Sequence record: OR352955.1
Direction: 5' to 3' (one strand)
Length of the DNA: 64,000 nucleotides
Source: Escherichia phage AV125
A model generated the notes under the pieces. It searched no databases. It had not been told where the DNA came from and was given only the letters and a program-made list of their open reading frames with translations. Position 1 is the stretch's first letter; the number at the start of each line of letters is the position of its first letter. Positions 3,246 through 56,786 of this stretch are shown piece after piece. The translations under genes and the position numbers were made by a program.

Positions 3246-3725
3246 ATGGAACTCAATAAAGATACACTGTGGGAACTCTTCAAAACCTTCGCTGGTTTTA
3301 AAGAGAATTCTGAATCCCAACAAGATTCTATACCATCTCAAAAACCTGAAACTCTAGTCAAACAAAATAAATTTGATGAAGAAAAGATGCAGGTTATTGA
3401 GGTCTTGTATTGTCCACCTGAAGAAGACGATCTCCACGGAGAGCGCATGTCTGATTTGGAAATCAGGAAGATGGTTGACAACTTCAATGAGAATATTACC
3501 AACATTAGTGGTAATCTTGGTCACATGAAGAACACCGATAAGTTTTCTCCAATTAAAGCTTGGGTAAATGAAGTCGATTGTTACATTGGTGACGAACTCG
3601 TTGTGGAAGGAACTCCCCTCGTTAAAATCCAATTCAACGACCCTGAATTATATCAAGCTCGTAAAGACGGCGTTCTTAAAGGTTTGAGTATAGGCGCAAT
3701 GGGCGTTAAAGTCAAGAAGGACTAA
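3246..3725 (+). CDS. Head morphogenesis protein (unassigned; possible prohead protease or assembly factor)
   Basis: 159-aa ORF between portal and scaffold-like gene; good RBS; no diagnostic motif recognised. Confidence 0.3.
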   Translation: MELNKDTLWELFKTFAGFKENSESQQDSIPSQKPETLVKQNKFDEEKMQVIEVLYCPPEEDDLHGERMSDLEIRKMVDNFNENITNISGNLGHMKNTDKFSPIKAWVNEVDCYIGDELVVEGTPLVKIQFNDPELYQARKDGVLKGLSIGAMGVKVKKD

Positions 3726-40582: not shown

Positions 40583-43500
40583 TCAATGACAGGATGCCCA
40601 GGAATTACCCACATCATATCCGGCAGTAAGCTGAACGTTAAGATTGTAAAATTCTCCAGCCTTAGTAACAGCTAAAGCAGCAAGTTCACCTGCCCGACTA
40701 TAGGCTGTAAACCATCCACCTTTGGGAGATTCATGAATGTTAGCCCAAATTTGCCCTGTCTCTTTTTCCTTATTATGCTTCCATTCTTCGACTTTAGCAA
40801 GACATTCTTTATCAATTTTCTTTTGTTCTTCAGGATCGTCTACTTTCTTCCAACCTAATGATTCAGGTGAAAACCATTTGAATTCTACAAGGTTACGAGA
40901 AACTTCAAGCTGGGCTTCATCGTGGTATGCAATCATTTGTTGCACGAAGTCTTTATTCTTCCAGTCATCTTTAAAGAAGTCAACACTTAGCCCTTCTTCT
41001 TCGATCATGTCGTCATAAATAACCATTGCACGTTTAGCACAGATAACCCCACCACTTTGGAACAGAGAGTTAAGAATCGCGTGAGCAGAACGAGTAGGAA
41101 CCTTACGACCGTCAATACCCAAAACATACTGTTTACCAGTCTTAACCCAGAAATCGTTTAAACGTTCTTTAAGACGCGCCAGTGGGAATGCAGCTTCCCA
41201 GAAAGCATCGAACACCAGTTGCCCTGTGTATTTATCGCTACCAATTGTTTTAGCAACCTTGTCTGCTTGTGCACCATAAGTGATCCCGTATTTAACAGAT
41301 TTCGCCGGACTACGTTCAAACTTACGCCCAATAGTATCTGTAATACGTTTTGCCATCATGGTATGAACATCGTTAGGCTTCTCTAACAAGAGAGCGTTAC
41401 AGTATTCATGAGGCTCCGGTTCGTAGCGCCAACAGTTTCCTGTGATGGTAATGCAGTCTTTCTGACGCATGACCCACGTACCAAGTTCTGTTTGTGGACA
41501 CCAAACATCCTCTACACCCCACTCTTCAATAGTCAAACTTTGAACAGGAATGTGAGAGCGGTTAGTCAATGTTGCCACTTTTACTTTCTGCTCTTTTGTA
41601 TTGAAAGCTACAGAGATATTGCCTCCATGCACCAGGTACGAGGCAGTTAAAGCTGCTTCAAAAAGTTCACCTGGGTTCTGCGCCCAACGCCAAACAGGTT
41701 TTTGTTTATGTTCATGCCAGTAACCATCTGCAATCAAGAAACCTTCCAAGAAAGCTACACGCTCGGCATGAGACATATTAACTACACGCTCTACCCACGG
41801 AACATCCCATTTACCTTGTTGAACAGAAGTTAAACTATTTACCTGATCTTGTTCCATGTTAAATGGAGCATTACAAATAATATTATCTCCTGTGCAAAGA
41901 TCGGCAGTTGTTCTGACTTTAGGCACATAAGTATTCCCTTTACTACGGGTATTAACATACCAACGGTGATCTGCTGTTGCACGGTAAGTGTGTGATTTCC
42001 CTTTAATCTCAAACGTCTTACTATTTTTATAGAAGACCTTACCTTTTACTTTAGTCCATTCTTTCATACCTGTTTCAGCATTGTACCCTAAAATCTCATC
42101 CCCTTCCTTCAGGTCGTGATATCCTACCCAACCTTTACGAGTCAAAGCTTGAGCATCCATCGGCACACAGTAATGCGACTCAATCTTTGCTTCCAAAGAG
42201 TCGAAGTCATAACCGATCTGGAAGTATTTAGGAACCTCTACACCAAACAAGTTACGCATCTCCCATCCAAACAAAGATGTGACACGAGGAATATTAGCTA
42301 CAGACCTATGCTTCATACGAGAGGTTGCAGCATCACATGTAGCTGCTGGGGTAGGAATACGACCATCCGCCCTTACTGCGGCTAAGAAACCTTTATCGTA
42401 TTCTTGATCTTCTTCGTCTTCTTCCCAATCGGCACCACCACCTAAAATAGAGTTCCTACGGTGTTTATACGTTAAGTATTCTACAATCTGTGTAGCATAA
42501 GGAAATTTCTCACCCAAAGCTTGCAGGTTAGGACAAATTTCTTTTTCCTGACCTTTGGTAAAACATGGGTTAGTCAATACTTTAAGACCGCGACCTTTAC
42601 CTTTTGCTATACGCTCTTGAATCTTCCTTTCCAAGGTTTCCGGTGTGCACTCCAGATGATCACAACGATCCTGACAAAAATTAGAAGATAGAGTTTGCTC
42701 AACGTAAGCTCGAATACCTTTCTGAAGTTCTTCCTCGCTCTTTTTAATCTTGGTGCCAGATTTAAGAGTCAAGTCTTTATCTTTATATTCAGACGGTACC
42801 CAACCTAACCCTACAAGCCAGTTTTTAATATGGGTTGTATCGTTCAATGTTGCAGGGATATTAGGATCACACAAAGGCTCATCTGCTGCAACTGGCAGTT
42901 TCCACTCTTTCCCCAACATAACTAACCACCAATCTCCATCCCTCTCTTCCAAATGACCATCATGTTTCTTAGCAAAATTGATCATATGGTTAGTTGGCTC
43001 TAAGTTCTTTTTAATTTGCAACTTAGGTGGAATAAAAGCCTTAAGATAGCCTTTTGTTGCTGGTTTAGGTGGCAAAATAGGCTCAACGAGTAAACGAAGA
43101 CGCTCCATTTCTGCATCCAAAAAAGCAAGGTTCTCTTCTGCTTGCTTCATGTTAAAAGCAAATCCACGGTGTTCCTGGCGTGTAATAATGTCTGCTACAC
43201 GTTGTTCAAGTTCAAATGGACCTTCCCATTTATCATAATCACCCCACTCTTCCATAAGGTAATTATATACGCTTGTATTAGCTTTGTTGTCATAGATACA
43301 GTAATAAAGCATATCCGCAGCAAAAGTCTTAAATCGATCTTCTTCTGGAATCTCTTTACGGAAATCTATTTTTACATCACCACCTGCTTTTCGAGAAAGT
43401 GCTGCCAAGCTATGTCCTGATTTGCCCTCAATCTTTCGATCTGGGTTTAACACTTTACTCAAAATCAAGGAGTCAATAAGTTTTACCTTATTTTTGCCCC

Positions 43501-43915
43501 ACGTATTATATTTAACACTGTAATCTAATCCATAAAACAGTTTTGTAGCCAACCAGTCGTAGTTGATACCGTTGTGAGCCACAGCCATTTCAACCAGATA
43601 TTCAGGCTTGTCTTCAAAATAACCTTCATGATTAATAAAGTCTGGGAAATCTTTTAGTTGAAAATGCGTGTAATCTTGCGCCACATACTCTTTAAGAACA
43701 TATGTGTATTTACCATCTGACTCTTCATAAGGACGCCCATCAAAGATGTATTTAGGGCCATCGTGGAAAGCTACTATTTCTCCTGTTTCATGGTTCTCTA
43801 AGACAATACAGTGCATTTGAAATGTGTCTTTGAGACGATAAGGACTAGCTAAATAATCAATAGTGTCATTATTCAACAATCCGTTTGCTTCAATATCCCA
43901 TGTAAACTTACTCAC
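40583..43915 (-). CDS. Family A DNA polymerase with 3'-5' exonuclease domain, interrupted by an intein-like insertion
   Basis: Exo I motif DIEANGL; polymerase motif A DFDSLEAKI, motif B RSPAKSVKYGITYG, motif C YHDEAQLEV; about 245 extra residues between motifs A and B; GTG start overlapping the upstream stop. Confidence 0.75.
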   Translation of the reverse strand: MSKFTWDIEANGLLNNDTIDYLASPYRLKDTFQMHCIVLENHETGEIVAFHDGPKYIFDGRPYEESDGKYTYVLKEYVAQDYTHFQLKDFPDFINHEGYFEDKPEYLVEMAVAHNGINYDWLATKLFYGLDYSVKYNTWGKNKVKLIDSLILSKVLNPDRKIEGKSGHSLAALSRKAGGDVKIDFRKEIPEEDRFKTFAADMLYYCIYDNKANTSVYNYLMEEWGDYDKWEGPFELEQRVADIITRQEHRGFAFNMKQAEENLAFLDAEMERLRLLVEPILPPKPATKGYLKAFIPPKLQIKKNLEPTNHMINFAKKHDGHLEERDGDWWLVMLGKEWKLPVAADEPLCDPNIPATLNDTTHIKNWLVGLGWVPSEYKDKDLTLKSGTKIKKSEEELQKGIRAYVEQTLSSNFCQDRCDHLECTPETLERKIQERIAKGKGRGLKVLTNPCFTKGQEKEICPNLQALGEKFPYATQIVEYLTYKHRRNSILGGGADWEEDEEDQEYDKGFLAAVRADGRIPTPAATCDAATSRMKHRSVANIPRVTSLFGWEMRNLFGVEVPKYFQIGYDFDSLEAKIESHYCVPMDAQALTRKGWVGYHDLKEGDEILGYNAETGMKEWTKVKGKVFYKNSKTFEIKGKSHTYRATADHRWYVNTRSKGNTYVPKVRTTADLCTGDNIICNAPFNMEQDQVNSLTSVQQGKWDVPWVERVVNMSHAERVAFLEGFLIADGYWHEHKQKPVWRWAQNPGELFEAALTASYLVHGGNISVAFNTKEQKVKVATLTNRSHIPVQSLTIEEWGVEDVWCPQTELGTWVMRQKDCITITGNCWRYEPEPHEYCNALLLEKPNDVHTMMAKRITDTIGRKFERSPAKSVKYGITYGAQADKVAKTIGSDKYTGQLVFDAFWEAAFPLARLKERLNDFWVKTGKQYVLGIDGRKVPTRSAHAILNSLFQSGGVICAKRAMVIYDDMIEEEGLSVDFFKDDWKNKDFVQQMIAYHDEAQLEVSRNLVEFKWFSPESLGWKKVDDPEEQKKIDKECLAKVEEWKHNKEKETGQIWANIHESPKGGWFTAYSRAGELAALAVTKAGEFYNLNVQLTAGYDVGNSWASCH
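41435..42169 (-). other. Intein-like insertion (Hint domain with a single LAGLIDADG-like motif) within the DNA polymerase
   Basis: Begins with Cys583 right after motif A (ESHY|CVPMDAQ); TxxH block (TADH); LAGLIDADG-like AFLEGFLIADGYW (nt 41723-41752); ends ...ITGN followed by Cys828 as +1 nucleophile. Other family A polymerases have about 30 residues here. Confidence 0.5.
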
Positions 43916-45245: not shown

Positions 45246-47022
45246 AATAATTGCTATCCGTAGGCAAATTAGCAGGATTGTTGAAATACTGCTCTTTGTC
45301 ATGCAGAGTTGCAGTTCTAATGTCATAGTAAAACTGCCCTGCCGGACCAGTTTCCGAGAACTCACGGTTTTTTAGGATAAAGCAATGAGTCGTATTGCGT
45401 TCTACAGGGTCTTCAGCGGCTTTATCTCGTTCCAAAGCCAAGGTAATACCAGCACCTTTAGCCAAGAAACTACTACCCATTGCATCGTCCTCTGTTAAGT
45501 GTTCATTGCCACCATTAGCCGATTTCTTAACGTGTGAGATGACGATAATAGTTATAGCATACTCTTTCATGATGCGCTTCAACCATGTTGCTAACTCTTC
45601 CTGGGCTTGAACATCCATACCAGAAAGCAAATCAGAATAAGGGTCGATAACAAGAATTGTTACTCCAAAATAGATGATCATCTCCAAAACTTTTTCTTTG
45701 ATAGACTCCACATCTGCTCCACGATCATCACACACATAAAAACGTGGTGATCCATCTTCTCTTTCGTAAAAATCTAGGATTTTTTCTTTATTCTCTTCCA
45801 AGATTTGAAATTTCTCTTCCGGTGTTTTCCTGTGTAGAGGAATATGCAGGAACGAGGACAACAGGTTACGAGAATATTTCTTATAAGTTGCTTCCAAGGA
45901 CAGAATACCTAGGGTATGTTCTGGGTGCGCAACAATAATATGTTTGGTGATCTCGTTCACCATCAAAGTTTTACCGATACTGGTCTTTGCCAGGATGACT
46001 GTAATCTCTTCCTCTACTAAACCACCACCCAGCATATTTGCAGCAACACGCATAAAAGGAGGCAAGGTAATCATCTTGGATTCCAAGCATTCTAATGCAG
46101 CTTCATACAAGACATTAGAAGCATAAACACCTGCTGGGGTGTATAGACGAGCACTCCAAAAAGCTTTTACGAAATCTTTTGCACGACCTTCTTCCAGATA
46201 CTGATTGGCATCCTTAAGATCCATCTGCATACGGTAGACTTTGTTACGAGGCAGCACCTTAACAATATTTTCAAATGCCTCATTACCTGCTTTGTCATTA
46301 TCCATGCAAACAATAATCTTCTTAAATTTTTCAAAGAAAGGGTATTGTGCCTGAACTTGTTTATACATACTGGTTTCACCAGTTGTGCCACTAACTACTG
46401 CTGGAAGTTCATATTTGTTGTCCAAGTTTTCAGACAGCATTTGATAAGCTGCCAGAGCATCGTGTTCACCACCTGTAATTACCACAGTATGAGAACGGTC
46501 TGCAAAACGAATTTGTCCAAAAAGATCTACATCTTTACCTACTTGACCAATAGGTTTACTGAAATCTTTAGGATGAATACGACGCTTAAAACCAACCAAT
46601 TCTTTACCGATGGTAGTTGGATATAAACAACTTTCTACTACCATCTGATCCCCTTCCTGACGGTATTCATAACGAACACCATAGAAAGATGAAACTTTTT
46701 CTTTAATGCCTCGATAACCACGTGGGTTGGTTGATGTTTCTTGAACAATTTTACGATGAATCTGTTTATTAAATTCCGAACCCACAATCTCCTCCTCTTC
46801 TTCTAAAACTTCACCATTTTCTCGTAACCATTCTACGCTAGGAATAGTGTATTCACACGCAAAGCACTTAGCACCTTTATGCTCTCCATTAGAATCTAAT
46901 CCATAAACCATCAGGTTATTACGAGAGCGATCCTTGCCATTTTTCATGCAGCGCGGACAACCTGTATGTCCTTCCTTGCTAAGATCAACATCAAATCCAT
47001 ATTTAGTTATAATGTGCGACAC
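45244..47022 (-). CDS. Bifunctional DNA primase-helicase (T7 gp4-like)
   Basis: N-terminal zinc finger CPRC...CFAC; TOPRIM-like VVITGGEHDALAAY and VCMDNDKAGNEA; helicase Walker A KTSIGKT and Walker B ILVIDPYSD. Confidence 0.7.
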   Translation of the reverse strand: MSHIITKYGFDVDLSKEGHTGCPRCMKNGKDRSRNNLMVYGLDSNGEHKGAKCFACEYTIPSVEWLRENGEVLEEEEEIVGSEFNKQIHRKIVQETSTNPRGYRGIKEKVSSFYGVRYEYRQEGDQMVVESCLYPTTIGKELVGFKRRIHPKDFSKPIGQVGKDVDLFGQIRFADRSHTVVITGGEHDALAAYQMLSENLDNKYELPAVVSGTTGETSMYKQVQAQYPFFEKFKKIIVCMDNDKAGNEAFENIVKVLPRNKVYRMQMDLKDANQYLEEGRAKDFVKAFWSARLYTPAGVYASNVLYEAALECLESKMITLPPFMRVAANMLGGGLVEEEITVILAKTSIGKTLMVNEITKHIIVAHPEHTLGILSLEATYKKYSRNLLSSFLHIPLHRKTPEEKFQILEENKEKILDFYEREDGSPRFYVCDDRGADVESIKEKVLEMIIYFGVTILVIDPYSDLLSGMDVQAQEELATWLKRIMKEYAITIIVISHVKKSANGGNEHLTEDDAMGSSFLAKGAGITLALERDKAAEDPVERNTTHCFILKNREFSETGPAGQFYYDIRTATLHDKEQYFNNPANLPTDSNY

Positions 47023-47034
47023 TTTGTTCTCCTG

Positions 47035-47313
47035 TTAAAATGGTTCGTTAGTCTCCATCATATATTCTGCTTCTAGTTCTTCCATGTGCTTTCTAAATTG
47101 GAAAGCAATTTCTGCTACAGTTACATTTAAATCTTTTTCAAAAACTTCTGTAGATCCTTCATAAAAACGAATACCGTCAATTAAAAGCCCTCCGTGGTAA
47201 TCCCAATCGCTTTCACGAGAAAGTGGATTAGGTTCTTCATAATAGTAATCCACCTCCACGACCAAGGCTTTCCCGTTACGAGTGGTGTATTCAAAATCAA
47301 AAGTGTTAATCAT
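47035..47313 (-). CDS. Hypothetical protein
   Basis: 92-aa ORF, coupled to the upstream gene. Confidence 0.3.
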   Translation of the reverse strand: MINTFDFEYTTRNGKALVVEVDYYYEEPNPLSRESDWDYHGGLLIDGIRFYEGSTEVFEKDLNVTVAEIAFQFRKHMEELEAEYMMETNEPF

Positions 47314-48257
47314 TATAGCTCCTCAAATAAAAGTCTACGACGCTCATTCAACACATCAATGTGATAATGAGTCCTGACATACTTAGCTAATGCTAATCCT
47401 TTCTCCATGCAAACATCGGGAGCACTTGATAAGTATTCCGTAATATCTTTCCACTCGGAAGGTGTTTCAGCAAAGAATAACAAATCTTTAAACTCTTGTG
47501 TATGATAATTCTCACGAGGAGAGCAGATTAAAGGTAAACCCTTAGCACCTGCCTCAAGAATTTTAAGATTGCTTTTTGCATTATTAAACACGTTATCGAT
47601 CAATGGTGCAAGACTGATTTGATGACCATCGTAAGATTCCATGTAGTTGGCATATGGTCTTACACCTTCATAAACACAAGTTGGTGCTACATTTTCCCTG
47701 ATTAAAGACCATTCACGACTACTTAAAACTTCAGAATCCCTACGAAAACCACATATTGTAAGATCTTTACCAAAATCGGGCAAGATAGCCAAATCTTGTT
47801 TATGTGTTTCACTTCCAGCCCAGACTAATGGAGTTTTGGAGTAGCGATCACGGGTCAACACAAATTGACCTTCATCGTAAGGAAGTCCATTAGGGATTAT
47901 GTGCACATTATCATTGTATTGTGAAAGTTCAACTTGCAAGGCAGGTGTCGTAGTTGTAACAAGATCACTGTGCTCTAAAAACCATTTTAAATGTTCACGA
48001 ATACCTGATTCAAAAATACCTTCTAACATGTGTCCTTTTGGAATAACTAAAGAGTCATCCAAATCCATAACCATTTTAAAGCCCAGGTTTTTAAGGGCTA
48101 AAAAGCCCTCTTTACCTTTTGTTGGCACTCCGTTAAAAACGAAAACGTTGTGTTTAGGTTGTGAAGAGAACTGCCTTGAGTAAGGCAGCACTACCCTATG
48201 GAAATCGCAGACACTATAATTGATTCCGTTACGATTGTCAAGAATTATTTGTCCCAT
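47313..48257 (-). CDS. Glycosyltransferase (GT-B fold-like), paralog 1
   Basis: C-terminal motif KSNLKILEAGAKGLPLICS typical of GT-B donor-binding domains; paralogous to the adjacent gene. Confidence 0.45.
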   Translation of the reverse strand: MGQIILDNRNGINYSVCDFHRVVLPYSRQFSSQPKHNVFVFNGVPTKGKEGFLALKNLGFKMVMDLDDSLVIPKGHMLEGIFESGIREHLKWFLEHSDLVTTTTPALQVELSQYNDNVHIIPNGLPYDEGQFVLTRDRYSKTPLVWAGSETHKQDLAILPDFGKDLTICGFRRDSEVLSSREWSLIRENVAPTCVYEGVRPYANYMESYDGHQISLAPLIDNVFNNAKSNLKILEAGAKGLPLICSPRENYHTQEFKDLLFFAETPSEWKDITEYLSSAPDVCMEKGLALAKYVRTHYHIDVLNERRRLLFEEL

Positions 48258-48264
48258 ACTTCAC

Positions 48265-49251
48265 CTACAAACTTTCAATAACCTGGCGTCGCAATTCGTT
48301 TGCATCTGCCAGATTATAATGTGTTCGAACATGTTCCGCTAAGAACAAGCCGCGATCTTCCCGATAGTTCGGATTTCGAAGAAGCTTAACAATTTCGTAA
48401 TGCCATTCTGCTTTATTCTCTGCATAAGCAACAGCGCGAGCATCTACAGGGTTAAAATAAGGTAATACCTTAGAACAAACAATCGGAATACCTTTTGCCC
48501 CAGCTTCAAGGATTTTGAGATTACTTTTACAATTATTAAAATCATTATCTACCAAAGGAGCTATAGCAATAGCATGACTTTCGTAAACACTCATGTAATT
48601 ATCTAAATCTTTTACAGCAGCTTTATATTTGGCATTTGGTAAATTTCTACGGATCTTAATCCACTCTTGCCCTGTGATACTCTGCGATGCTTCATATCCT
48701 GCAATAGTAAGAAGTTCATCATCGAAAGTATTAGAGACTAGTCGTAAATCGGGTTCGTGACTAGCACCGCCAGCCCATACAACAGGGGTACCGGATGAAC
48801 GATCATTTGACAAAGTGAATTGTCCGCTATCAAAAGGAAGTGCATTTCGGATCACAACAACATTCCTATTTAAGTGACGGATCTTATATGCCAAATATTC
48901 CGTAGTCACAATGACCACATCGGCAAGCTTAACCATAGCTACAATAGCATGAGTGTTTGACTCATATAAACTTGCTAAATAATGTTCTGGATTAAGTTGG
49001 TAGAAATCATCTAAATCTACAACAATCTTAACACCTTGACGTTTCAGGGACAGAACATATTCTGCCCCTTTAGAATGAATACGGTTAAACACGACAACAT
49101 CTTTCTTAGGCTGAAAATTATTGTTGTTAAATGGTATAACAATACGATGATAATCACAACCACTGTGAGGTTTTGCATCAATTTTCAGTTTAGTCCATTT
49201 TTTATTTGACATGTGCCAGTGCCTCCTCATAAGAAATTCGGATTTTCCCAT
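48265..49251 (-). CDS. Glycosyltransferase (GT-B fold-like), paralog 2
   Basis: Collinear similarity to the 47313 gene (DYHRIVIPF vs DFHRVVLPY; KSNLKILEAGAKGIPIVCS). Confidence 0.45.
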   Translation of the reverse strand: MGKSEFLMRRHWHMSNKKWTKLKIDAKPHSGCDYHRIVIPFNNNNFQPKKDVVVFNRIHSKGAEYVLSLKRQGVKIVVDLDDFYQLNPEHYLASLYESNTHAIVAMVKLADVVIVTTEYLAYKIRHLNRNVVVIRNALPFDSGQFTLSNDRSSGTPVVWAGGASHEPDLRLVSNTFDDELLTIAGYEASQSITGQEWIKIRRNLPNAKYKAAVKDLDNYMSVYESHAIAIAPLVDNDFNNCKSNLKILEAGAKGIPIVCSKVLPYFNPVDARAVAYAENKAEWHYEIVKLLRNPNYREDRGLFLAEHVRTHYNLADANELRRQVIESL

Positions 49252-49885
49252 TTTTAATATCTTCTAAAGACGCTTTATATTCTTCCCAGTTAATGCCAAT
49301 AGCAGCTTCTTTCTCTTCTTTTGTCAGATTAGCAAAAGGCATAGGATTGTTTCCAAAAACATCGTCTGGGTGGATATAAGCCATGATACGAAGTGGACAA
49401 GGTATTGCCTGAATGCCCTGATTCAAACCAGCAGCTTTCAAACGGTGTACCCATTCAGCATCTTCAAAACCATAGCCGTGAGTGTAAGGGCGGAAATAAC
49501 CCATCTTCTCAACAACGGCACGAGAATACATTGCAAATTGACACATTGCAAGTTCCCAGAGAATAACTTCTCCTTTACTCCCAACAACTTTATCTTTGAA
49601 ATACTCCGGCATACCAAAGAAATCCCATCCTCCAGAGACAGCTTGATCTACAAAATATGTTTCCCATCCCTCCATGATTGGGTAGCAATCGTCGTCAAAA
49701 ATAAACCAATAATCATAACCTTCTTCATAAAACTGGTGCATAAGTTCATTCCTGGCGTAAGCTACACCTTTACGATCTGGATCGTTGAATATTCGAAAAT
49801 CTGCATGTGGATCTGTTACAAGATAGTCTTTAAGTGGACGGACACCTACAGTGATAACACCCACTCCGATTTTAATATTTTCCAT
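49202..49885 (-). CDS. Glycosyltransferase (GT-A fold-like, DxD)
   Basis: FIFDDDCYP (DxD) and YGFEDAEW motifs; the 3' end overlaps the next gene by about 50 nt. Confidence 0.45.
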   Translation of the reverse strand: MENIKIGVGVITVGVRPLKDYLVTDPHADFRIFNDPDRKGVAYARNELMHQFYEEGYDYWFIFDDDCYPIMEGWETYFVDQAVSGGWDFFGMPEYFKDKVVGSKGEVILWELAMCQFAMYSRAVVEKMGYFRPYTHGYGFEDAEWVHRLKAAGLNQGIQAIPCPLRIMAYIHPDDVFGNNPMPFANLTKEEKEAAIGINWEEYKASLEDIKNGKIRISYEEALAHVK

Positions 49886-49893
49886 TTTCTCTC

Positions 49894-50457
49894 CTAGATA
49901 GTTTTACTGTGATCGTGACAGTGTAATAAATGATGTATAGACCGTTGAGGATTTGTTTGACCTAATCTGTAAATGTGAAACAGATACATTCCCCGCATCA
50001 ATCCTAACCTTTTTCCTTTTTCATGTAAAGTGCGAGAGAAAATTAGGTCGAATTGGATAGATTTTTCTTCGAAAGGAATTTCATTCCACAATGATTTTCT
50101 AAAAAGCAAAAAGAAACCTGCCAGAGGTGTTCCGAAAGGAACTTCTTCAACACTCACTTTATGATATTCTCTTGCAATCTTAGCATATTCTATATGGTTT
50201 AGAATATTTGGATCATCGTTAATTTGGTTAGAGAAAAGCTGATAACCACTACCTAACCTGTTACAAGTTGCACCTATTACATCAAAAGGCGGGTTTGACA
50301 TAATAAGCTCTTCAAGCATAGATGGTTGATCAGGCAGGAGGAACATTGTATCGGTATCTCTTAAGCACACCCAACTATCATCTGGAAGAACGGCAATAGC
50401 TTCATTGATAGCCTTGCCGATATTTCCTGTCAGATAGGGAGTAATATAATAAATCAT
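49894..50457 (-). CDS. Putative glycosyltransferase (GT-A-like, DxD motif CLRDTDTMF)
   Basis: N-terminal YITPY..GNIGKAINEAI then DTD motif; fourth member of a glycosyltransferase cluster. Confidence 0.3.
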   Translation of the reverse strand: MIYYITPYLTGNIGKAINEAIAVLPDDSWVCLRDTDTMFLLPDQPSMLEELIMSNPPFDVIGATCNRLGSGYQLFSNQINDDPNILNHIEYAKIAREYHKVSVEEVPFGTPLAGFFLLFRKSLWNEIPFEEKSIQFDLIFSRTLHEKGKRLGLMRGMYLFHIYRLGQTNPQRSIHHLLHCHDHSKTI

Positions 50458-50473
50458 TCTCCCCTCCGTTATA

Positions 50474-50665
50474 TTAACTGTCAGCTACAATCCCACGTTT
50501 AATCATTTCTTGTTGGATTTGGATGACACGATCTCGTGCTTCCATATATTCTTTAAAAGATTCTTGGAGATGGTCACGAGCTACATCCCGTAGTTTAATC
50601 AGCTTGTCGTTTGTCACTTCTTGAAGAGAGATCTCGCCAGTTTCATTGGTCCCAAGCGTTTTCAT
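50474..50665 (-). CDS. Hypothetical small protein
   Basis: 63-aa helical, charged ORF. Confidence 0.3.
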   Translation of the reverse strand: MKTLGTNETGEISLQEVTNDKLIKLRDVARDHLQESFKEYMEARDRVIQIQQEMIKRGIVADS

Positions 50666-50873
50666 TTACAACCTCCTTAATAGCTACTGCACAGTTCTTA
50701 CAAATACATTGACCTTTGTTCTTAGAAATTTCAATGTAAGGTTCATTTTCGTTTTCTCCGCGTCGTGAATCGTATATTACAGTATTGAAGCAGACAACGC
50801 AAATGTTTTTAATAACAACATATTTTTGCACTTTTTGTTTAGTGCGAAAATTTACTTCAATGACTTCTCCCAT
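50643..50873 (-). CDS. Small zinc-ribbon protein
   Basis: Track ORF trimmed to the ATG at 50873 that overlaps the upstream stop; Cys pairs CVVC...CICKNC. Confidence 0.3.
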   Translation of the reverse strand: MGEVIEVNFRTKQKVQKYVVIKNICVVCFNTVIYDSRRGENENEPYIEISKNKGQCICKNCAVAIKEVVNENAWDQ

Positions 50874-51157
50874 CAGTGAATCTCCCCTAAAATGTTGTTT
50901 TGAGACATTACTGCGGAGCATTCTACAGCATCATGAGTCCTTGCAAAACGCTCCCACAGCACAGCATCTACTTTAAGAACCATACAAGGATAAATACTGT
51001 CGTTGATCATATCAATGCTATATTTATCTACATCCTTTTCATCTTCCATAAACAAAGTAGCGTATGCTTCCAAATGTTTACGGGTGTAGTATACGTCCTC
51101 TTCGGTAAGACCGACAACCAGGTAACTTGCTACAACAACAGTATTATCTTCTTGCAT
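50873..51157 (-). CDS. Hypothetical protein
   Basis: Track ORF trimmed to the ATG at 51157, the first start after the upstream gene's stop, with AAGGGGAG RBS. Confidence 0.3.
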   Translation of the reverse strand: MQEDNTVVVASYLVVGLTEEDVYYTRKHLEAYATLFMEDEKDVDKYSIDMINDSIYPCMVLKVDAVLWERFARTHDAVECSAVMSQNNILGEIH

Positions 51158-51158
51158 T

Positions 51159-51680
51159 TTAACTCCCCTTTGGTAGATAGAAACCATGCACTTTATCTCG
51201 ATAAACAAGACGCATATCACGCTCCCAGTGTGTCCTTATATTCCGTTTCTTGAAGTATAGAGCACCTTTAGTAACATCTAAAACAGACCGCAATTCAGGA
51301 AAATGTTTCTCTAAATAAAGTAAACGCTCCGCTATTGCTTTTGCTTCCTGCCACTTATCTTTCTCTGTCACGTTAAAAGTTTTCGCATATGAGAATTGCC
51401 CTTTCTGGAACAAGACTCCCTTGACTGTGTTAGGGAAGTAGGCATCATTTCTTCTGTTGATTACCACATTCCCAACGGCATTCATTCCTTTTTTACCCAG
51501 ACCGCGACCTTCTGCGTAAATTGCACAAGCTAATAGAATTTTATCATTATATTGCTTTGTACATTTGTGAACTACTTTAGCGGTTTTTACGTTTGCAGCT
51601 TCGGCTTTCGCCACAACAGGTGTAAATGTAAAAGCAGTTAAGGATAGTAACGCAACTGTTACAAAGTTTTTTATCAGCAA
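51159..51680 (-). CDS. Secreted cell-wall hydrolase, SleB/CwlJ-like (candidate endolysin)
   Basis: N-terminal signal peptide (LIKNFVTVALLSLTAFTFTPVVAKA); Hydrolase_2-like core LLACAIYAEGRGLGKKGMNAVGNVVINRR; TTG start 8 nt after AAGGAGG; own promoter. Confidence 0.5.
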   Translation of the reverse strand: MLIKNFVTVALLSLTAFTFTPVVAKAEAANVKTAKVVHKCTKQYNDKILLACAIYAEGRGLGKKGMNAVGNVVINRRNDAYFPNTVKGVLFQKGQFSYAKTFNVTEKDKWQEAKAIAERLLYLEKHFPELRSVLDVTKGALYFKKRNIRTHWERDMRLVYRDKVHGFYLPKGS

Positions 51681-51780: not shown

Positions 51781-52383
51781 TTATGGACATTCATACCATT
51801 CTTTTTTACCACCGAAGGCCATCACCACATCGCAAATATCCAGACCAGCTTTACCTACACCATATGCTTTCAGCTTCCATTCTCCATCTTCACGAACCAG
51901 GGAAGCCACGTGGCAGATTGTGTTGCCAGCTACTTCAGGAGCCAGGAAGTCAAAATCCAGAATTTCCACATTGCGCTCGGAGTCGAAGATTTTAAGCATA
52001 CCTTCAGAAGCATGACCAAAACGTTTCAGACCTGTATCATCATCAATGGTCAGAACAAAGGCAATCTCTTGTGCATCAGGAGAGATTTTAGCCAGAGTAA
52101 TATCAATCTGCTCCATGCTGCCAGTTCCATCACGAACATCGTCACCAGCGAAGGTAGAACGTTCAGGATCAAACTTGTTAGCATAGCAAACCAGATGACG
52201 TGCAGACAGCATTTCAGGATTGCCAGCGGCATTGTGACGACAAACCAGTGCACTTACATCCAGATCCAGTTTAGAATCAGATTTCCAAGAGAATTCCAGA
52301 CGCAGTTCTTTCAGAGCCGGAGCAACTTTCTTCAGGGAAATTTTTTCGCTAGAACCTTTTTTCAGGGAAATTTTATCAGTCAT
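51781..52383 (-). CDS. terD: TerD-domain protein (tellurite-resistance TerD family)
   Basis: N-terminal ISLKK repeats; core TFAGDDVRDGTGSMEQIDITLAKISPDAQEIAFVLTIDD matches the TerD GDxxxG..GDDE..I...L pattern; about 200 aa. Confidence 0.6.
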   Translation of the reverse strand: MTDKISLKKGSSEKISLKKVAPALKELRLEFSWKSDSKLDLDVSALVCRHNAAGNPEMLSARHLVCYANKFDPERSTFAGDDVRDGTGSMEQIDITLAKISPDAQEIAFVLTIDDDTGLKRFGHASEGMLKIFDSERNVEILDFDFLAPEVAGNTICHVASLVREDGEWKLKAYGVGKAGLDICDVVMAFGGKKEWYECP

Positions 52384-52398
52384 CTTTTGTCTCCTCTA

Positions 52399-52668
52399 TT
52401 ATTTAAGTGTAATACCAGTTACAGTCAATTCTACTTCCAAAAGCTTAGATGTGTTTTGGATTGATACTAATTGTGCATGATGGTTTAGTTCTACAGCAGA
52501 ATAATCATTTTCCCCATCATCTACTTTTAAATAAACAATGATTTCACTAAGGTCTAAACCATTTTCGTCAAATGCATTTTCATAGACGAAAGTATCTCCT
52601 ACATCCAAATCTTTGATGGTAAGGCATCGTTTATTTACTTTTTGCTCATCAATTTCGAAGTTTAACAC
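52399..52668 (-). CDS. Small protein, paralog B of a two-member family (precedes TerD)
   Basis: KDLDVGDTFVYENAFDENGLD...LEVELTVTGITLK aligns with the 53690 ORF (EDLGIGATFMYYDAYEDAGLD...VEVDLEVTNITLK). Confidence 0.35.
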   Translation of the reverse strand: MLNFEIDEQKVNKRCLTIKDLDVGDTFVYENAFDENGLDLSEIIVYLKVDDGENDYSAVELNHHAQLVSIQNTSKLLEVELTVTGITLK

Positions 52669-52897
52669 TTCTTCCTCCTAATGTTATCTCCGGTTTGTAT
52701 ATACGAAGAATTATAACATTTTCATTTTCTTTGTCAACCCATTCTTCATAATCAGGCCATACATGAATCTCTACTCTACTTACAATATCTTCCATTCGCA
52801 CAGTCCCAATGAAATACTCTTTGAGACTGCGCATAATGAAAGCTTCTCTCTCGCGCCAATAATTTTCTATGACTTGAGAGGCAAGCTCGTCGATCAT
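52649..52897 (-). CDS. Hypothetical small protein
   Basis: 82-aa ORF between the vWA gene and paralog B; overlapping coupled starts. Confidence 0.3.
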   Translation of the reverse strand: MIDELASQVIENYWREREAFIMRSLKEYFIGTVRMEDIVSRVEIHVWPDYEEWVDKENENVIILRIYKPEITLGGRSVKLRN

Positions 52898-53688
52898 TTT
52901 TTAGCACCTACTTTAACAACCCACTCTCCGAACTCTTCAGATAAGAGTTTGTCATAAAGCTCTGAATCTGTCAAGTCTAAATCTTTAATGCCAATAAAAC
53001 CAACATTATCATAAGCATTTGCCAGTTCTTTCAGGAAGCCAAACTTCTCATTACCAACGCCAACCATGAACCAATAAATAGGTTTATTCTTATTCTCTTC
53101 AATAAGACGACGAACAGCACTAGGATCACCATTCTCACCATCCGTCTGGAAGAATACAACACCAGGGGTAACGTCAGCACCTGGTTCAGACACAGCTACA
53201 ACCTTTTCACGCTCTACAGATACTGTTTCAGTTTTACCAAGCAGACGATTAAAGAAGCCTTTCTTTGGAGCCTCCTCTTGTACCACTTGTTTAGTGGTAA
53301 TATATTTGGTAACAGTGCCAAAATACTCATCGTAGATATCTGCCATTACAGGGGCGTAATTTGTTCCACCTCCGATACGAACATTGCGCATACATTTACC
53401 AACATAGTCATCGTAAACGTCTGCTGTTGCTGGAGTAAGCTCTTGGGAACTCGTATTGAAGGCCCACATATCAATTTGTTGATTATCGTCGAACAGCATA
53501 CCAAAAGGAAGCAGTTTACCTACAAAATCACTCACTACCCCACTAGAATATAGACCATGCATACTACCAGAAATATCTAGAGCACATGCTACACGAAGAA
53601 CAATCTTACCTTCATTCAGGTTCTTATTCTTTTTCAGAGAGAAAGCAAGGTTTTCTTGACGTTTTTTCAGGCTGATTTTCTCGGACAT
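52894..53688 (-). CDS. von Willebrand factor A (vWA) domain protein with TerD-like N-terminal leader
   Basis: MIDAS motif DISGSM in LRVACALDISGSMHG; N-terminus MSEKISLKKRQENLAFSLKK parallels the TerD N-terminus MTDKISLKKGSSEKISLKK. Confidence 0.55.
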   Translation of the reverse strand: MSEKISLKKRQENLAFSLKKNKNLNEGKIVLRVACALDISGSMHGLYSSGVVSDFVGKLLPFGMLFDDNQQIDMWAFNTSSQELTPATADVYDDYVGKCMRNVRIGGGTNYAPVMADIYDEYFGTVTKYITTKQVVQEEAPKKGFFNRLLGKTETVSVEREKVVAVSEPGADVTPGVVFFQTDGENGDPSAVRRLIEENKNKPIYWFMVGVGNEKFGFLKELANAYDNVGFIGIKDLDLTDSELYDKLLSEEFGEWVVKVGAKK

Positions 53689-53689
53689 A

Positions 53690-53986
53690 TTATTTCTCCT
53701 TCTTAAGTGTAATATTGGTAACTTCTAAATCTACTTCCACCATATTTGTATCTGGCGGGATGCAATGAGTATAGCCTCGTTGTGCTAGTGATCCATTAAT
53801 ACAGATCGCACTGTTTGTGGAATTTTTAATGAACACCAAGTTACGGTAGGTATCCAACCCTGCGTCTTCATAGGCATCATAATACATGAATGTGGCCCCT
53901 ATGCCAAGATCTTCGAAAGCAATAGGTAAATCCTGACACTTTTCTTCTTGAATATTGAATCTAAACACGCATACCTCCTCTACCAA
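53690..53986 (-). CDS. Small protein, paralog A (precedes the vWA gene)
   Basis: See paralog B; 98 aa. Confidence 0.35.
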   Translation of the reverse strand: MVEEVCVFRFNIQEEKCQDLPIAFEDLGIGATFMYYDAYEDAGLDTYRNLVFIKNSTNSAICINGSLAQRGYTHCIPPDTNMVEVDLEVTNITLKKEK

Positions 53987-54524
53987 TTTTGAAGCCCAAA
54001 TCGTAAGCTTCTTTAGTGATCTTTTGCAACTCGCTTATAGGAAGTGTTACAAGAGGATCATCTTCTTCAATTTCCATCTTGTCATCTTCTGTTTCAATGA
54101 GAGTATTATGCACTTTATGATAAGGGTTGTCAACACGTTTAAACTTATTCTTTTCTGTGCTGAAGAAACAATCTGGATCTTCTTCACCATCACCCCAACC
54201 TTGATTAGGATCTCTGTCAGATTGTTCTGTAGGGATCTCACCTGTAAAGTACTCTTCCAGCACCATAGCGATGCCGTCCCTTGGATTTGAGGAATGCATC
54301 AAATCACAAACCTTACTCCAATCCATAGCCCAGTCGAACCGTTCACGAACGCCATTTTCATCCTCTTTTCCAGAGAAAACACAACCATAACTATCATAGT
54401 TGCCATACATCTCTTCAATAACAACACCGTCCTTCAAAAGAAAGAGGTAGCAAGGTGATCCGTCGAAAGAAGTAGAAAGGGCAGCTTTGCCCGATTCTTT
54501 GCACAAAAAGCTAAAACAACCCAT
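53961..54524 (-). CDS. Hypothetical acidic protein
   Basis: 187-aa ORF rich in Asp/Glu (EEDPDCFF, ETEDDKMEIEEDDP). Confidence 0.3.
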   Translation of the reverse strand: MGCFSFLCKESGKAALSTSFDGSPCYLFLLKDGVVIEEMYGNYDSYGCVFSGKEDENGVRERFDWAMDWSKVCDLMHSSNPRDGIAMVLEEYFTGEIPTEQSDRDPNQGWGDGEEDPDCFFSTEKNKFKRVDNPYHKVHNTLIETEDDKMEIEEDDPLVTLPISELQKITKEAYDLGFKIGRGGMRV

Positions 54525-54727
54525 TACAAACCCTCCTTCAGATTATCAAGAGCTACAGTGGTTTCACAAAATTCTCCATAAGCTTTATGATGTTCCAGAA
54601 AAGCTTCGGGTCCACCCCAATCATTGTCTTGTGTATTCCAGCCATCAATAAAAGCATCTTCAATGATTGTGATCAGTTCTTGTCGGGTTAACTGGATAAT
54701 ATTAGGGTCGTTATCGTAGTTAAACAT
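54524..54727 (-). CDS. Hypothetical small acidic protein
   Basis: 67-aa ORF; ATG with GAGGAGGAAG RBS. Confidence 0.3.
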   Translation of the reverse strand: MFNYDNDPNIIQLTRQELITIIEDAFIDGWNTQDNDWGGPEAFLEHHKAYGEFCETTVALDNLKEGL

Positions 54728-54893
54728 CCTCTTCCTCCTCTAAAATATGGAACCCGTAATTACAATAGTCCTGAAAGGTTTCGTGTGCAAGATCTTCTAT
54801 ATCCTCTTGAGACATATCATCTTCAATTTCGATATCCACAACCTCATTGCATCCACACCAAGCAGTTTCAATATTCACTCGTAATATTTTCAT
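54720..54893 (-). CDS. Hypothetical small acidic protein (57 aa; not in ORF track)
   Basis: Manual translation MKILRVNIETAWCGCNEVVDIEIEDDMSQEDIEDLAHETFQDYCNYGFHILEEEEDV; ATG overlaps the upstream stop (TAATG) and follows a GGAGGAGGAG RBS. Confidence 0.25.
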   Translation of the reverse strand: MKILRVNIETAWCGCNEVVDIEIEDDMSQEDIEDLAHETFQDYCNYGFHILEEEEDV

Positions 54894-55090
54894 TACTCCT
54901 CCTCCTCATTGAAGTCAATATCTGCAAGGAGTTCGAATTTACGGAAGTTACGACAACCTTCATAAATATAACAATCACGACAAACTGCTAGAACACTTGG
55001 GGGATATATGCCTCCCATCGGCGCGAATCGTTTTTCGTCATCATAACGGACACCAATGTCCTCATCAATTATATAGATACGGATTCTCAT
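54893..55090 (-). CDS. Hypothetical small protein with acidic C-terminus
   Basis: 65-aa ORF ending ...DIDFNEEEE; start overlaps the TelA stop. Confidence 0.3.
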   Translation of the reverse strand: MRIRIYIIDEDIGVRYDDEKRFAPMGGIYPPSVLAVCRDCYIYEGCRNFRKFELLADIDFNEEEE

Positions 55091-56199
55091 TTACCAAGCC
55101 CTCGTTTCACAGCAGCTACCATCCCGTCTTCCAAAGATTGAACTTCATTAATATAATCAACACGAGCAGCACGGGCTTCCGTATTGATGCGGTTAGTTTC
55201 TTCCAACATCTTAACCAAGTTTTCCTGATCGTGACGCAGAGTTTCAATATCCAACACTTGACGGTTAGCCAGTGCTGCTGCTTCGATCTGATTCTGTGTG
55301 GCAAGATCGCTACCCAGTTTAATTGCCAGGTTAAATTCATCAAGAACGTTATTCTGCGACTCTGCTGCTTTCATTTGACGTAAGCTCTCGATATACATTG
55401 AGAAGTTAGCAGAGTAAGCAGGAATAACATTATTTACTATGTTACGCGCAGATCGCATTAAGCTTGCAGAAACTTTTTGCATACCTTGTACACGCGGTCC
55501 CATTTGGACACACAGTAGGCGCAATGCTTTTAAATCTGCAATACGAATCTCCAGAAGATCCAAAGTATCTCGGATCACTTGTCGCTGTTCTACTGCATCT
55601 TCTGGAAGAGCAGCCAAAGCTTGTTCTTCTTTTTCATAGGTTGCTGTTAGAAGCTGCATATCTCGGTTCAAACTTGCAGCATATTGTCCAATAGCTTGAT
55701 GTAGCTTTTCAAGATATACCAAGGAATCTTCTTCTTTGCGAATATCCATTTGAAGGTTTTTTACCAACTCTTCAATACGGTTATTAACATTATCAAACTC
55801 CCCAAACAGATCTTCTTTCATACCCATAACTTTTTTAATGAGTTTAGTAATACCCTTGCTTTGTTTAATAGAGTTTGGATCAAGTTGTTTTGCCTGTTTA
55901 ATCAAAGCTGTGAGTCGTTCACTCATCTGATCGCCTTGATTACTACGTTGATGTTTTAATACCTCGGCATTCAAGGAACGCAAGGTTGTTCCTGCCTCTG
56001 CCCCAATCTCTTCGATCTCCTGTCGGGTCATAGAAGGCAAAACTGGAACTTCTTGCGGTGCCGCTGGTGCATAAACAGGACTGGCATCTAACACGCTTGG
56101 AGCGAATACAGATTTACTTGCATCTGTTGTTGCAGCAAATACGCTCATTTCAGGTTTCTTCTGACAGCCAGTAGCTGCTTTTAAAAATGGACTTGTCAT
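55087..56199 (-). CDS. telA: TelA-like toxic anion resistance family protein
   Basis: 370 aa, largely helical with long heptad-like segments; size and composition as for TelA/KlaA; lies in a cluster with TerD, vWA and TerC homologs. Confidence 0.5.
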   Translation of the reverse strand: MTSPFLKAATGCQKKPEMSVFAATTDASKSVFAPSVLDASPVYAPAAPQEVPVLPSMTRQEIEEIGAEAGTTLRSLNAEVLKHQRSNQGDQMSERLTALIKQAKQLDPNSIKQSKGITKLIKKVMGMKEDLFGEFDNVNNRIEELVKNLQMDIRKEEDSLVYLEKLHQAIGQYAASLNRDMQLLTATYEKEEQALAALPEDAVEQRQVIRDTLDLLEIRIADLKALRLLCVQMGPRVQGMQKVSASLMRSARNIVNNVIPAYSANFSMYIESLRQMKAAESQNNVLDEFNLAIKLGSDLATQNQIEAAALANRQVLDIETLRHDQENLVKMLEETNRINTEARAARVDYINEVQSLEDGMVAAVKRGLGK

Positions 56200-56786
56200 T
56201 CTTCATTCTCCTCTTCTGCATCTCTTATATATGGTGAAACACCGTACTCTTTAGCTACTTTAACCCAATCGTCCCATTTATACAACCATAATTTTCCTTC
56301 GGTCCCTTCTTTATCTGATTTCAACCACATATTAGGTTGCTTACCTGGGTACATGCGATTAGGTTTACGATTATAACCTCTAACACATCTTGTCGCAAAC
56401 CTATCTACCAGAACAAGAACATATTTATATTCGTGGTTCAACGGCTCTTTGGAAGTGGCTTTAGGATTAGCCCCTAACTCTGCTGCCAGTTTTTGCCAAT
56501 GAGCACCGTGTCTACTAAACTTACCCATACAACCATCAATAGCATGAGCAATTTCGTGCTTCATTGTATCCACGATCATATCTCTTGTAGAGTTCTTATG
56601 CAAGTGCCAATTTACAACAACAATTTTATCTCGGTAGTTGCACCAACCGAAAGAGTTATTCACTTTGTTTCTAACACAAGCTTTATATCCTGCTTCACGT
56701 AACATGTTGTAGTAAACAGGAAAATCTTCTTTTATTTCCTGCATCACTTCCCACCACAAGAGTTGCAAGTCTCTCTCGGTATACAT
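56196..56786 (-). CDS. SprT-like zinc metalloprotease domain protein
   Basis: HExxH motif in MKHEIAHAIDGCMGKFSRHGAHWQKLAAELG; acidic C-terminal tail. Confidence 0.5.
   Translation of the reverse strand: MYTERDLQLLWWEVMQEIKEDFPVYYNMLREAGYKACVRNKVNNSFGWCNYRDKIVVVNWHLHKNSTRDMIVDTMKHEIAHAIDGCMGKFSRHGAHWQKLAAELGANPKATSKEPLNHEYKYVLVLVDRFATRCVRGYNRKPNRMYPGKQPNMWLKSDKEGTEGKLWLYKWDDWVKVAKEYGVSPYIRDAEEENEE

Follow-up and report, generated by a model that had tools for sequence, protein, structure and literature searches.

Four consecutive genes of Escherichia phage AV125 (sequence record OR352955.1), referred to here as D, C, B and A, encode predicted glycosyltransferases (GTs) and occupy positions 47313-50457 of the 64,000-nucleotide stretch of DNA analysed in this work (the window). 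We tentatively propose that this cassette makes a short rhamnose-containing glycan on an acceptor other than DNA, most likely virion proteins. Pointing to a phage-specific soluble acceptor are the apparent restriction of the enzyme families to phages, the mostly acidic character of the enzymes and their lack of a membrane-spanning segment, the placement of related genes in the late or head regions of small phages, and the homology of C to a mycobacteriophage enzyme encoded at the position of a virion-glycosylation cassette.

In the proposed scheme, A–D would be soluble cytoplasmic enzymes that act in sequence, each adding one sugar, to give a short oligosaccharide. At least one step would probably use deoxythymidine diphosphate (dTDP)-L-rhamnose supplied by the phage's own RmlA–RmlD enzymes, and the likeliest acceptor would be a phage virion protein, giving progeny with a glycan coat, as in the Cluster F mycobacteriophages. 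Of this scheme, we infer the stepwise action, the rhamnose donor and the identity of the acceptor.

Architecture of the glycosyltransferase operon

The window derives from a virulent, phAPEC8-like myovirus of Escherichia coli with a 150-kb genome, a member of the genus Phapecoctavirus (subfamily Stephanstirmvirinae). Over window positions 47000-50700, identity is 99.9% to Escherichia phage vB_EcoM_ESCO25, 99.5% to phage ESCO5 and 97-99% to about 60 further phAPEC8-like phages. As a complete genome at 99.5% identity, the annotated ESCO5 RefSeq record serves here as the proxy for genome parts beyond the window.

The block is filled by four open reading frames (ORFs) on the minus strand, all in the same orientation and in the order D, C, B, A, and is followed by a small acidic ORF:

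49894-50457, minus strand: D, predicted compact GT-A-like glycosyltransferase of 187 amino acids, first gene of the cassette
49202-49885, minus strand: C, predicted GT-A glycosyltransferase of 227 amino acids
48265-49212, minus strand: B, predicted GT-B glycosyltransferase of 315 amino acids, paralogue of A; the longest ORF reaches 49251
47313-48257, minus strand: A, predicted GT-B (GT4-like) glycosyltransferase of 314 amino acids
47035-47313, minus strand: small acidic ORF of 92 amino acids, isoelectric point (pI) 4.2; its start and the stop of A share one base

Spacing along the cassette is 8, -11 and 7 nucleotides, followed by -1 nucleotide between A and the 92-residue ORF, with a Shine–Dalgarno-like sequence ahead of each gene. 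The true start of B is likely to be the ATG at 49212 and not the upstream start at 49251: it lies downstream of a GAGGAGG ribosome-binding site, overlaps the stop of C and corresponds to the start used for B in the ESCO5 RefSeq record. No terminator-like site was found on the minus strand within the four-gene block, the scan for promoters and terminators being otherwise uninformative. As read from the sequence, D-C-B-A is one co-transcribed and translationally coupled operon.

Membership of the 92-residue ORF in the cassette is doubtful. It is 48% identical to an 87-residue ORF downstream of the A-like gene in Klebsiella phage KP2025, has no Pfam match, and has no counterpart in the copies of the cassette found in temperate phages. 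Small flanking ORFs were considered as glycan carriers or acceptors and set aside, as they are common only to the syntenic large myoviruses and are missing from the temperate-phage copies.

Surrounding the operon are genes for a family A DNA polymerase, a putative N6-adenine methyltransferase (NPPF motif, weak match to the Eco57I methylase), a Toprim-DnaB primase-helicase, and TerD, vWA-TerF, TelA and SprT-like proteins.

Folds and families of the four enzymes

All four proteins match PHROG families annotated as 'glycosyltransferase' (E values of 1e-79 to 1e-149), among them phrog_7162 for B (7e-149), phrog_14179 for D (1e-112) and phrog_2456 for C (4e-79). Every Pfam match of A–D falls under the gathering threshold; those of A (PF13524, 23.3 bits against a cut-off of 25) and B (PF13692, 22.6 bits against a cut-off of 27) are of GT1 type, and several relatives carry precomputed PF13524 matches. 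For D, Pfam gives no glycosyltransferase match, only a chance-level one to HAP2-GCS1 (E 0.15). None of the NCBIfam models matches any of the four proteins, and searches against the sequences of solved structures with A, C and D, by single sequence and by profile, returned chance matches only. A and B are 41% identical (E 3e-76); between C and D there is no detectable sequence relationship.

The AlphaFold model of A (predicted local distance difference test score, pLDDT, of 93) has a GT-B fold with two Rossmann-like domains. Its top Foldseek neighbours in the PDB are PglA, GtfC/Gtf3, GlgM, BshA, MshA, SdgB, TarM and WaaG, with a probability of 1.00 to PglA, BshA, MshA, GlgM and WaaG and query-normalised TM-scores of 0.50-0.61 (0.42 for one MshA entry, 3c48_A). 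On this model, A is a GT-B-fold enzyme of GT4 type. Residue E235, in a KILEAGAKG segment, is nearly invariant, and by inspection there is no second Glu eight residues downstream of it, as in an E-x7-E motif. The A/B family is small, with 35 clusters among 5.8 billion proteins, nearly all on phage-sized contigs and one in a bacterial genome entry; the family of C is likewise small and phage-borne. By this census, the A and C families appear to be essentially restricted to phages.

C was modelled with a pLDDT of 85.7 and adopts a GT-A fold in which the FIFDDD (D64-D65-D66) and YG[FY]ED motifs, the latter reading YGFED in C itself, are invariant across the family. The best match among solved structures is A197 of Sulfolobus turreted icosahedral virus (STIV; 1.2e-6), followed by chondroitin synthase, B4GALNT1, WrtF, LH3, TarP/TarS and, at rank 30, RmlT. 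On the model, C is a GT-A-fold enzyme of the DxD class.

D is predicted to be of GT-A type with a DxD motif: D34-x-D36 is nearly invariant, each Asp being kept in at least 90% of sequences, N66, R67, H161, Y163 and R164 are invariant, and one relative (P0083) has a D-like domain with a Pfam GT2 match (PF00535, 2e-11). An exhaustive profile search gave 972 representatives of the D family. Among the best 150, 59 are multi-domain proteins, of which 44 carry a TOD1/MUCI70 glycosyltransferase domain, six a GT2 domain and one a Methyltransf_24 fusion, with a nucleic-acid-related domain in none of the 59. That D-like domains are mostly joined to other transferase domains fits a role in glycan building.

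Three of the enzymes are acidic (pI 5.7 for A, 4.9 for C and 6.1 for D) and B is mildly basic (pI 8.5). The Kyte–Doolittle hydropathy maximum over 19 residues does not exceed 1.65 in any of the four proteins, which indicates that none has a membrane-spanning segment.

These results bear out the original prediction, made from the letters of the window, of four tandem glycosyltransferase genes, two of them paralogous and GT-B-like and two GT-A-like with DxD motifs. Its placement of the genes in the replication module, between the primase-helicase and the Ter-like cluster and in the neighbourhood of an adenine methyltransferase and the DNA polymerase, agrees with the flanking genes identified here.

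A portable cassette with mycobacteriophage relatives

The one bacterial genome entry of the A/B family is a temperate, HK97-like prophage of Serratia sp. M24T3 (AJHJ01000054.1; L010, 5589-7670), which carries a D-C-A trio arranged as in AV125, with the lysis cassette on one side and the gene of the small terminase subunit on the other (hhalign E values of 1e-59 and 2e-47). In a 45.8-kb temperate-phage contig, A-like and C-like genes separate the gene of the large terminase subunit from that of the portal, and a lambdoid contig has C-like and A-like genes directly upstream of holin and lysozyme; the C-A pair is thus found in late-gene regions of two temperate-phage contigs (L012 and L013). KP2025, a distant Klebsiella myovirus, has D and one A/B gene in syntenic position beside the Ter cluster, and C elsewhere in its genome. 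In Cellulophaga phage phi18:1, a D-like fusion adjoins a Methyltransf_24 gene, the pair being flanked by portal and head-morphogenesis genes on one side and by those for protease and capsid on the other. By these comparisons the D-C-A or C-A set is a portable cassette, located in late or head-gene regions of unrelated small phages, and from the temperate-phage and KP2025 copies it follows that the mobile unit would be the transferase set alone.

The link to virion glycosylation comes through C, which has about 350 tblastn matches in mycobacteriophages, Rita included. Its profile aligns with the transferase domain of SiSi gp96 over 193 columns (hhalign probability 98%, E 1.4e-13), and the gene of SiSi gp96 directly precedes the terminal HNH gene, in the right-end cassette position that gp108-110 occupy in Che8. 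The capsid proteins of Che8 and Rita are reported to be glycosylated (PMC11256854, citing Freeman et al. 2023). Che8 gp108 combines GT2 with Methyltransf_24/TylF, and a D-like domain is fused to Methyltransf_24 in another relative (P0097). Direct matches to Che8 gp108-110 are marginal or negative, and the mycobacteriophage link runs only via the SiSi/Rita-type enzyme.

The gene between portal and scaffold that RefSeq labels 'DNA methyltransferase' was considered as a possible sugar methyltransferase, a counterpart of the Methyltransf_24 gene of the Cellulophaga phage, and was rejected. Its product (ESCO5 gp256 and the equivalent at window 3246-3725, plus strand, 159 amino acids) matches the prohead serine proteases of XkdF type (PF14550, 1.4e-11), and the RefSeq label is probably wrong.

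A dTDP-rhamnose pathway with the same distribution

Outside the window, about 70 kb from the cassette, the ESCO5 record contains a complete dTDP-L-rhamnose pathway, RmlA–RmlD, at positions 30.5-33.8 kb. The four products, gp083-086, match the Pfam families RmlD_sub_bind (2e-73), dTDP_sugar_isom (8e-67), NTP_transferase (8e-73) and GDP_Man_Dehyd/Epimerase (2e-79). At 95% identity or more, RmlD and the transferases A, C and D each match one and the same set of 64 records; they are also present in six phiWec phages, in about 57 Justusliebigvirus (phi92-like) records and in 8-10 relatives among the Klebsiella phages; there are no Vequintavirus phages among the matches of A or D. Judged from these matches, the distribution of the rml genes across phage groups appears to be essentially that of the transferases.

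The association of rml genes and transferases has been noted before by Olsen et al., who guessed that hydroxymethylated bases are rhamnosylated (PMC7552041), and the authors of the BASEL collection refer to a 'putative dTDP glycosylation machinery' (PMC8594841).

DNA as a possible acceptor

The first option named in the original prediction, also suggested by Olsen et al. 2020 (PMC7552041) and repeated in PMC10844046, was that the cassette may glycosylate a modified DNA base as an anti-restriction measure. We regard this as very improbable. The idea draws on the location of the cassette among replication genes, like b-gt and gene 42 of phage T4, and on the high demand of DNA modification, which a phage-made nucleotide sugar would suit. 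C has weak local similarity around its DxD motif to Pfam TAGT (PF20691, E 0.0018), but the score is 18.7 bits against a cut-off of 27.5 and only residues 37-68 are covered; it also matches phrog_842, the family of the β-glucosyl-hydroxymethylcytosine (HMC) α-glucosyltransferase, at E 7.8e-6. Kinship to the T-even enzymes is otherwise not seen. Searched by tblastn against the ESCO5 genome and the window, T4 β-glucosyltransferase gives a best E of 0.89, outside the cassette; its profile comparison with A/B has an hhalign probability of 1.2%, and no T-even DNA transferase is among the fold matches of A and C in the PDB and BFVD. Three of the four enzymes are acidic, against a pI of 9.05 for T4 β-glucosyltransferase, and the cassette is also present in small lambdoid phages.

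A partner that would supply the modified base is likewise not in evidence. The original prediction had seen no base-hydroxymethylase in the window, and this holds: in tblastn searches of the window and the ESCO5 genome, the dCMP hydroxymethylase of T4 (gp42) gives a best E of 2.3 and the T4 dCTPase nothing significant. The genome-wide search for a hydroxymethylase that it had suggested, carried out on ESCO5, led to a single suspect, the only 'thymidylate synthase' of the genome, and this is a ThyX (Pfam Thy1, PF02511, 1.6e-8) and not a ThyA-type hydroxymethylase. There is no TET/JBP protein among the ESCO5 annotations, about 180 hypothetical proteins not having been scanned singly.

Restriction data point in the same direction. 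Among phages grouped by restriction fragment length polymorphism (RFLP) analysis with HincII, ESCO25, ESCO5 and ESCO13 were cut; only ESCO10, ESCO47 and ESCO58 were uncut, of which at least ESCO10 is T-even (PMC10269720). The ESCO5 genome has 117 HincII sites. The phi92-like phages of the BASEL collection, whose genomes contain orthologues of the cassette genes, were described as 'exceptionally susceptible' to restriction-modification (PMC8594841), and Justusliebigvirus relatives are hit by Druantia III and ARMADA II, the authors proposing that unmodified DNA is most likely recognised. With no hydroxymethylase partner, no kinship to T4 b-gt and cuttable DNA, glycosylation of DNA by the cassette is unlikely, and partial or rare modification could still occur.

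Two ESCO5 genes are worth recording in their own right. The ThyX-family protein of ESCO5 (332 amino acids; L001, 39755-40753) has no close solved relative and no solved relative of the ThyA family. The gene annotated as 'GTP cyclohydrolase II' (L003, 39336-39878) scores as a NADAR domain (PF08719, 1.8e-35).

Possible protein, envelope and small-molecule acceptors

We hold it to be a possibility, somewhat short of probable, that the acceptor is a virion protein or another phage protein. The fuller proposal, that in the Stephanstirmvirinae coliphages a rhamnose-containing glycan, made by the cassette and the dTDP-rhamnose pathway, covers the virions or some other phage-made protein, and that the cassette has the same role in temperate enterobacterial phages, is likewise tentative.

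Several observations weigh against a protein acceptor in the virion. Aligned with their counterparts in a Vequintavirus, a group without A/B and D, the proteins of capsid, tail tube, sheath and portal are collinear and differ in length by at most 3 residues; there is therefore no lineage-specific C-terminal acceptor tail of the mycobacteriophage type. A search for such tails on the capsid and tail tube proteins, by comparison with this Vequintavirus, found none. Compared pairwise with the characterised enzymes of Che8, C and D show marginal similarity (E 0.002-0.012), the cassette lies here among replication genes and not structural genes, and where temperate phages have it, cargo genes that alter the surface of the lysogenic host are classically found too. 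The use of rhamnose by any single one of the enzymes is a prediction only. Literature searches gave no report of virion glycans in this phage group, and Freeman et al. 2023 reportedly found little virion glycosylation outside the actinobacteriophages. A paper with a negative glycoprotein stain for the E. coli phage JEP7 was also considered; JEP7 is a Rosemountvirus and JEP6 is T4-like, so that this result does not apply here.

It is possible, if on the unlikely side, that the cassette remodels a glycoconjugate of the host envelope; modification of host surface polysaccharide was the second option named in the original prediction, and it stays in contention. The enzymes would then act at the cytoplasmic face on undecaprenyl-diphosphate-linked GlcNAc (Und-PP-GlcNAc), O-units, enterobacterial common antigen (ECA), the NGR glycan or the lipopolysaccharide (LPS) core, and the effect would be to block superinfection, to keep progeny from binding to debris or, in temperate phages, to convert the serotype of the lysogen. 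Phages of this group use ECA/NGR and the LPS core as receptors (PMC8594841; PMC11990801). The temperate copies lie at positions of conversion cargo, from Q to lysis and from lysis to terminase. Among the fold neighbours of A, PglA, PimA, WaaG and TarM use lipid-linked or polymer acceptors, and among those of C, TarP, which is prophage-encoded, TarS and RmlT modify wall teichoic acid. Rhamnose, moreover, is a common sugar of O-antigen and LPS core. Enzymes that use lipid-linked acceptors, however, are usually basic peripheral membrane proteins, and the hydropathy and mostly acidic pI of A–D do not fit this description. No flippase, GT-C enzyme or GtrA/B-like partner is found among the ESCO5 annotations, and the A and C families are almost without bacterial homologues or an NCBIfam match, which would be unusual for genes borrowed from polysaccharide clusters. 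Replacement of outer-membrane glycans within a short lytic cycle would also be expected to be incomplete.

Doubtful, in our estimate, is the glycosylation of a small molecule, possibly a nucleoside-like metabolite of the adjoining Ter-linked module with its phosphoribosyltransferase (PRTase) and HAD phosphatase. Among the top fold matches of A are enzymes that glycosylate small molecules, namely BshA (malate), MshA (inositol phosphate), GlgM, sucrose-phosphate synthase and TreT. In this phage, and likewise in the distant phage KP2025, the Ter cluster is the neighbour of the cassette, and in ESCO5, genes for a PRTase, a HAD hydrolase, a phosphatase and TerC follow further along the same strand. 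The temperate-phage copies, however, have no Ter genes in their sequenced surroundings, and adjacency in the large myoviruses may be mere conservation of gene order. The idea of a Ter-linked metabolite was reportedly put forward by Anantharaman et al. 2012. The remaining probability falls to some acceptor outside the four candidates considered here (phage protein, envelope glycan, small molecule and DNA).

Genomic surroundings

Between the transferase block and the Ter cluster lies a gene for a SleB-type cell-wall hydrolase (window 51159-51680, minus strand; PF07486, 2e-17). The protein has a hydrophobic stretch at its N-terminus, a potential signal or anchor, and the gene is far from the spanin genes, which are near the terminase. 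A small Cys-rich ORF (window 50643-50921, minus strand) has the pattern CxxC...CxC..C and may bind zinc. Its true start is probably the internal Met17, the start used in RefSeq and consistent with a 74-residue KP2025 homologue that is 64% identical. The Ter-like cluster itself (TerD, vWA-TerF-like, TelA and SprT-like) occupies window 51781-56786 on the minus strand and extends further; in ESCO5 it is followed by TerC, a phosphatase, the PRTase and the HAD hydrolase, an arrangement that is kept in KP2025.

The family A DNA polymerase (window 40583-43915, minus strand, 1110 amino acids) contains an insertion of about 245 residues that starts with a Cys, ends in TGN directly before a Cys, and has a LIADGY motif inside. 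Pfam matches of the insertion to Intein_splicing (E 0.003) and LAGLIDADG_3 (E 0.15) are sub-threshold. The insertion is probably an intein with a homing endonuclease.

Records named after other hosts are also highly similar to the E. coli phapecoctaviruses over window 47000-50700: Campylobacter phage B15 (99.6%, DNA), Klebsiella phage ZCKP1 (98.7%, DNA), Acinetobacter phage vB_AbaM_ABPW7 (97-99%, protein) and a Pseudomonas phage. The host names of these records may be wrong, or the records may reflect contamination.

Significance

Annotation of these genes as glycosyltransferases and their link to the rml genes are already in print, so the bare observation is not new. What appears to be new is the convergent evidence against DNA glycosylation, the portable D-C-A/B cassette shared with temperate enterobacterial phages, and the homology of the cassette to a mycobacteriophage cassette. 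The published idea of 'rhamnosylated DNA' keeps recurring, and the evidence presented here redirects the question to proteins or envelope glycans.

Phapecoctavirus and Justusliebigvirus have host ranges among the broadest of the coliphages and are candidates for therapy and biocontrol. Throughout one set of about 127 phage genome records they retain all four transferase genes together with the four rml genes, eight in total, which is a large conserved investment. If virion glycosylation were confirmed, it would be the first such system in phages of Gram-negative bacteria, extending a phenomenon known only from actinobacteriophages, and it would bear on the antibody shielding, body clearance and stability of therapeutic phages. 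If the target were instead a host glycan, the cassette would provide a new cytoplasmic route of receptor masking.

Comparison with known systems

Prophage seroconversion systems such as GtrABC and TarP likewise consist of phage-borne transferases able to alter the surface glycans of the host. Unlike them, the present cassette belongs to a virulent 150-kb myovirus, and the membrane parts of the Gtr system (the GtrA flippase, GtrB and the GT-C enzyme) are not annotated here.

The T-even DNA glucosyltransferases share with A–D their location among replication genes, T4 β-glucosyltransferase is also a GT-B enzyme, and C has a weak local PHROG match to the T2/T6 β-glucosyl-HMC α-glucosyltransferase. 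The two systems differ in that the cassette enzymes have no sequence or profile kinship to T4 β-glucosyltransferase and no hydroxymethylase partner, the DNA can be cut by restriction enzymes, and the enzymes are mostly acidic.

STIV A197 is the best solved-structure match of C, and the nearest predicted viral structures are GT2-like and GT25-like proteins of phages, megaviruses and archaeal viruses. Sequence identity to these viral GT-A enzymes is only 10-20%, and their acceptors are mostly putative too.

A further comparison is with the virion glycosylation cassettes of mycobacteriophages (Che8 and the Cluster F1 phages SiSi and Rita). Differences include the Gram-negative host, the absence of a methyltransferase from this cassette and the full dTDP-rhamnose pathway that accompanies it. 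In the mycobacteriophages, capsid and tail tube subunits carry O-glycans on tails at their C-termini, and no lineage-specific tail is seen on these proteins here; the virion glycans of mycobacteriophages have been reported, whereas those of the present phages are hypothetical. The GT-B paralogues A and B have only weak matches, over part of their length (25-41% identity), in two phages of Streptomyces and one of Arthrobacter. In both systems, however, two to four soluble transferases are encoded outside the structural module, the glycosyltransferase and Methyltransf_24 architecture of Che8 gp108 recurs among the relatives of D, and C is, by profile comparison, a true homologue of the SiSi gp96 transferase domain.

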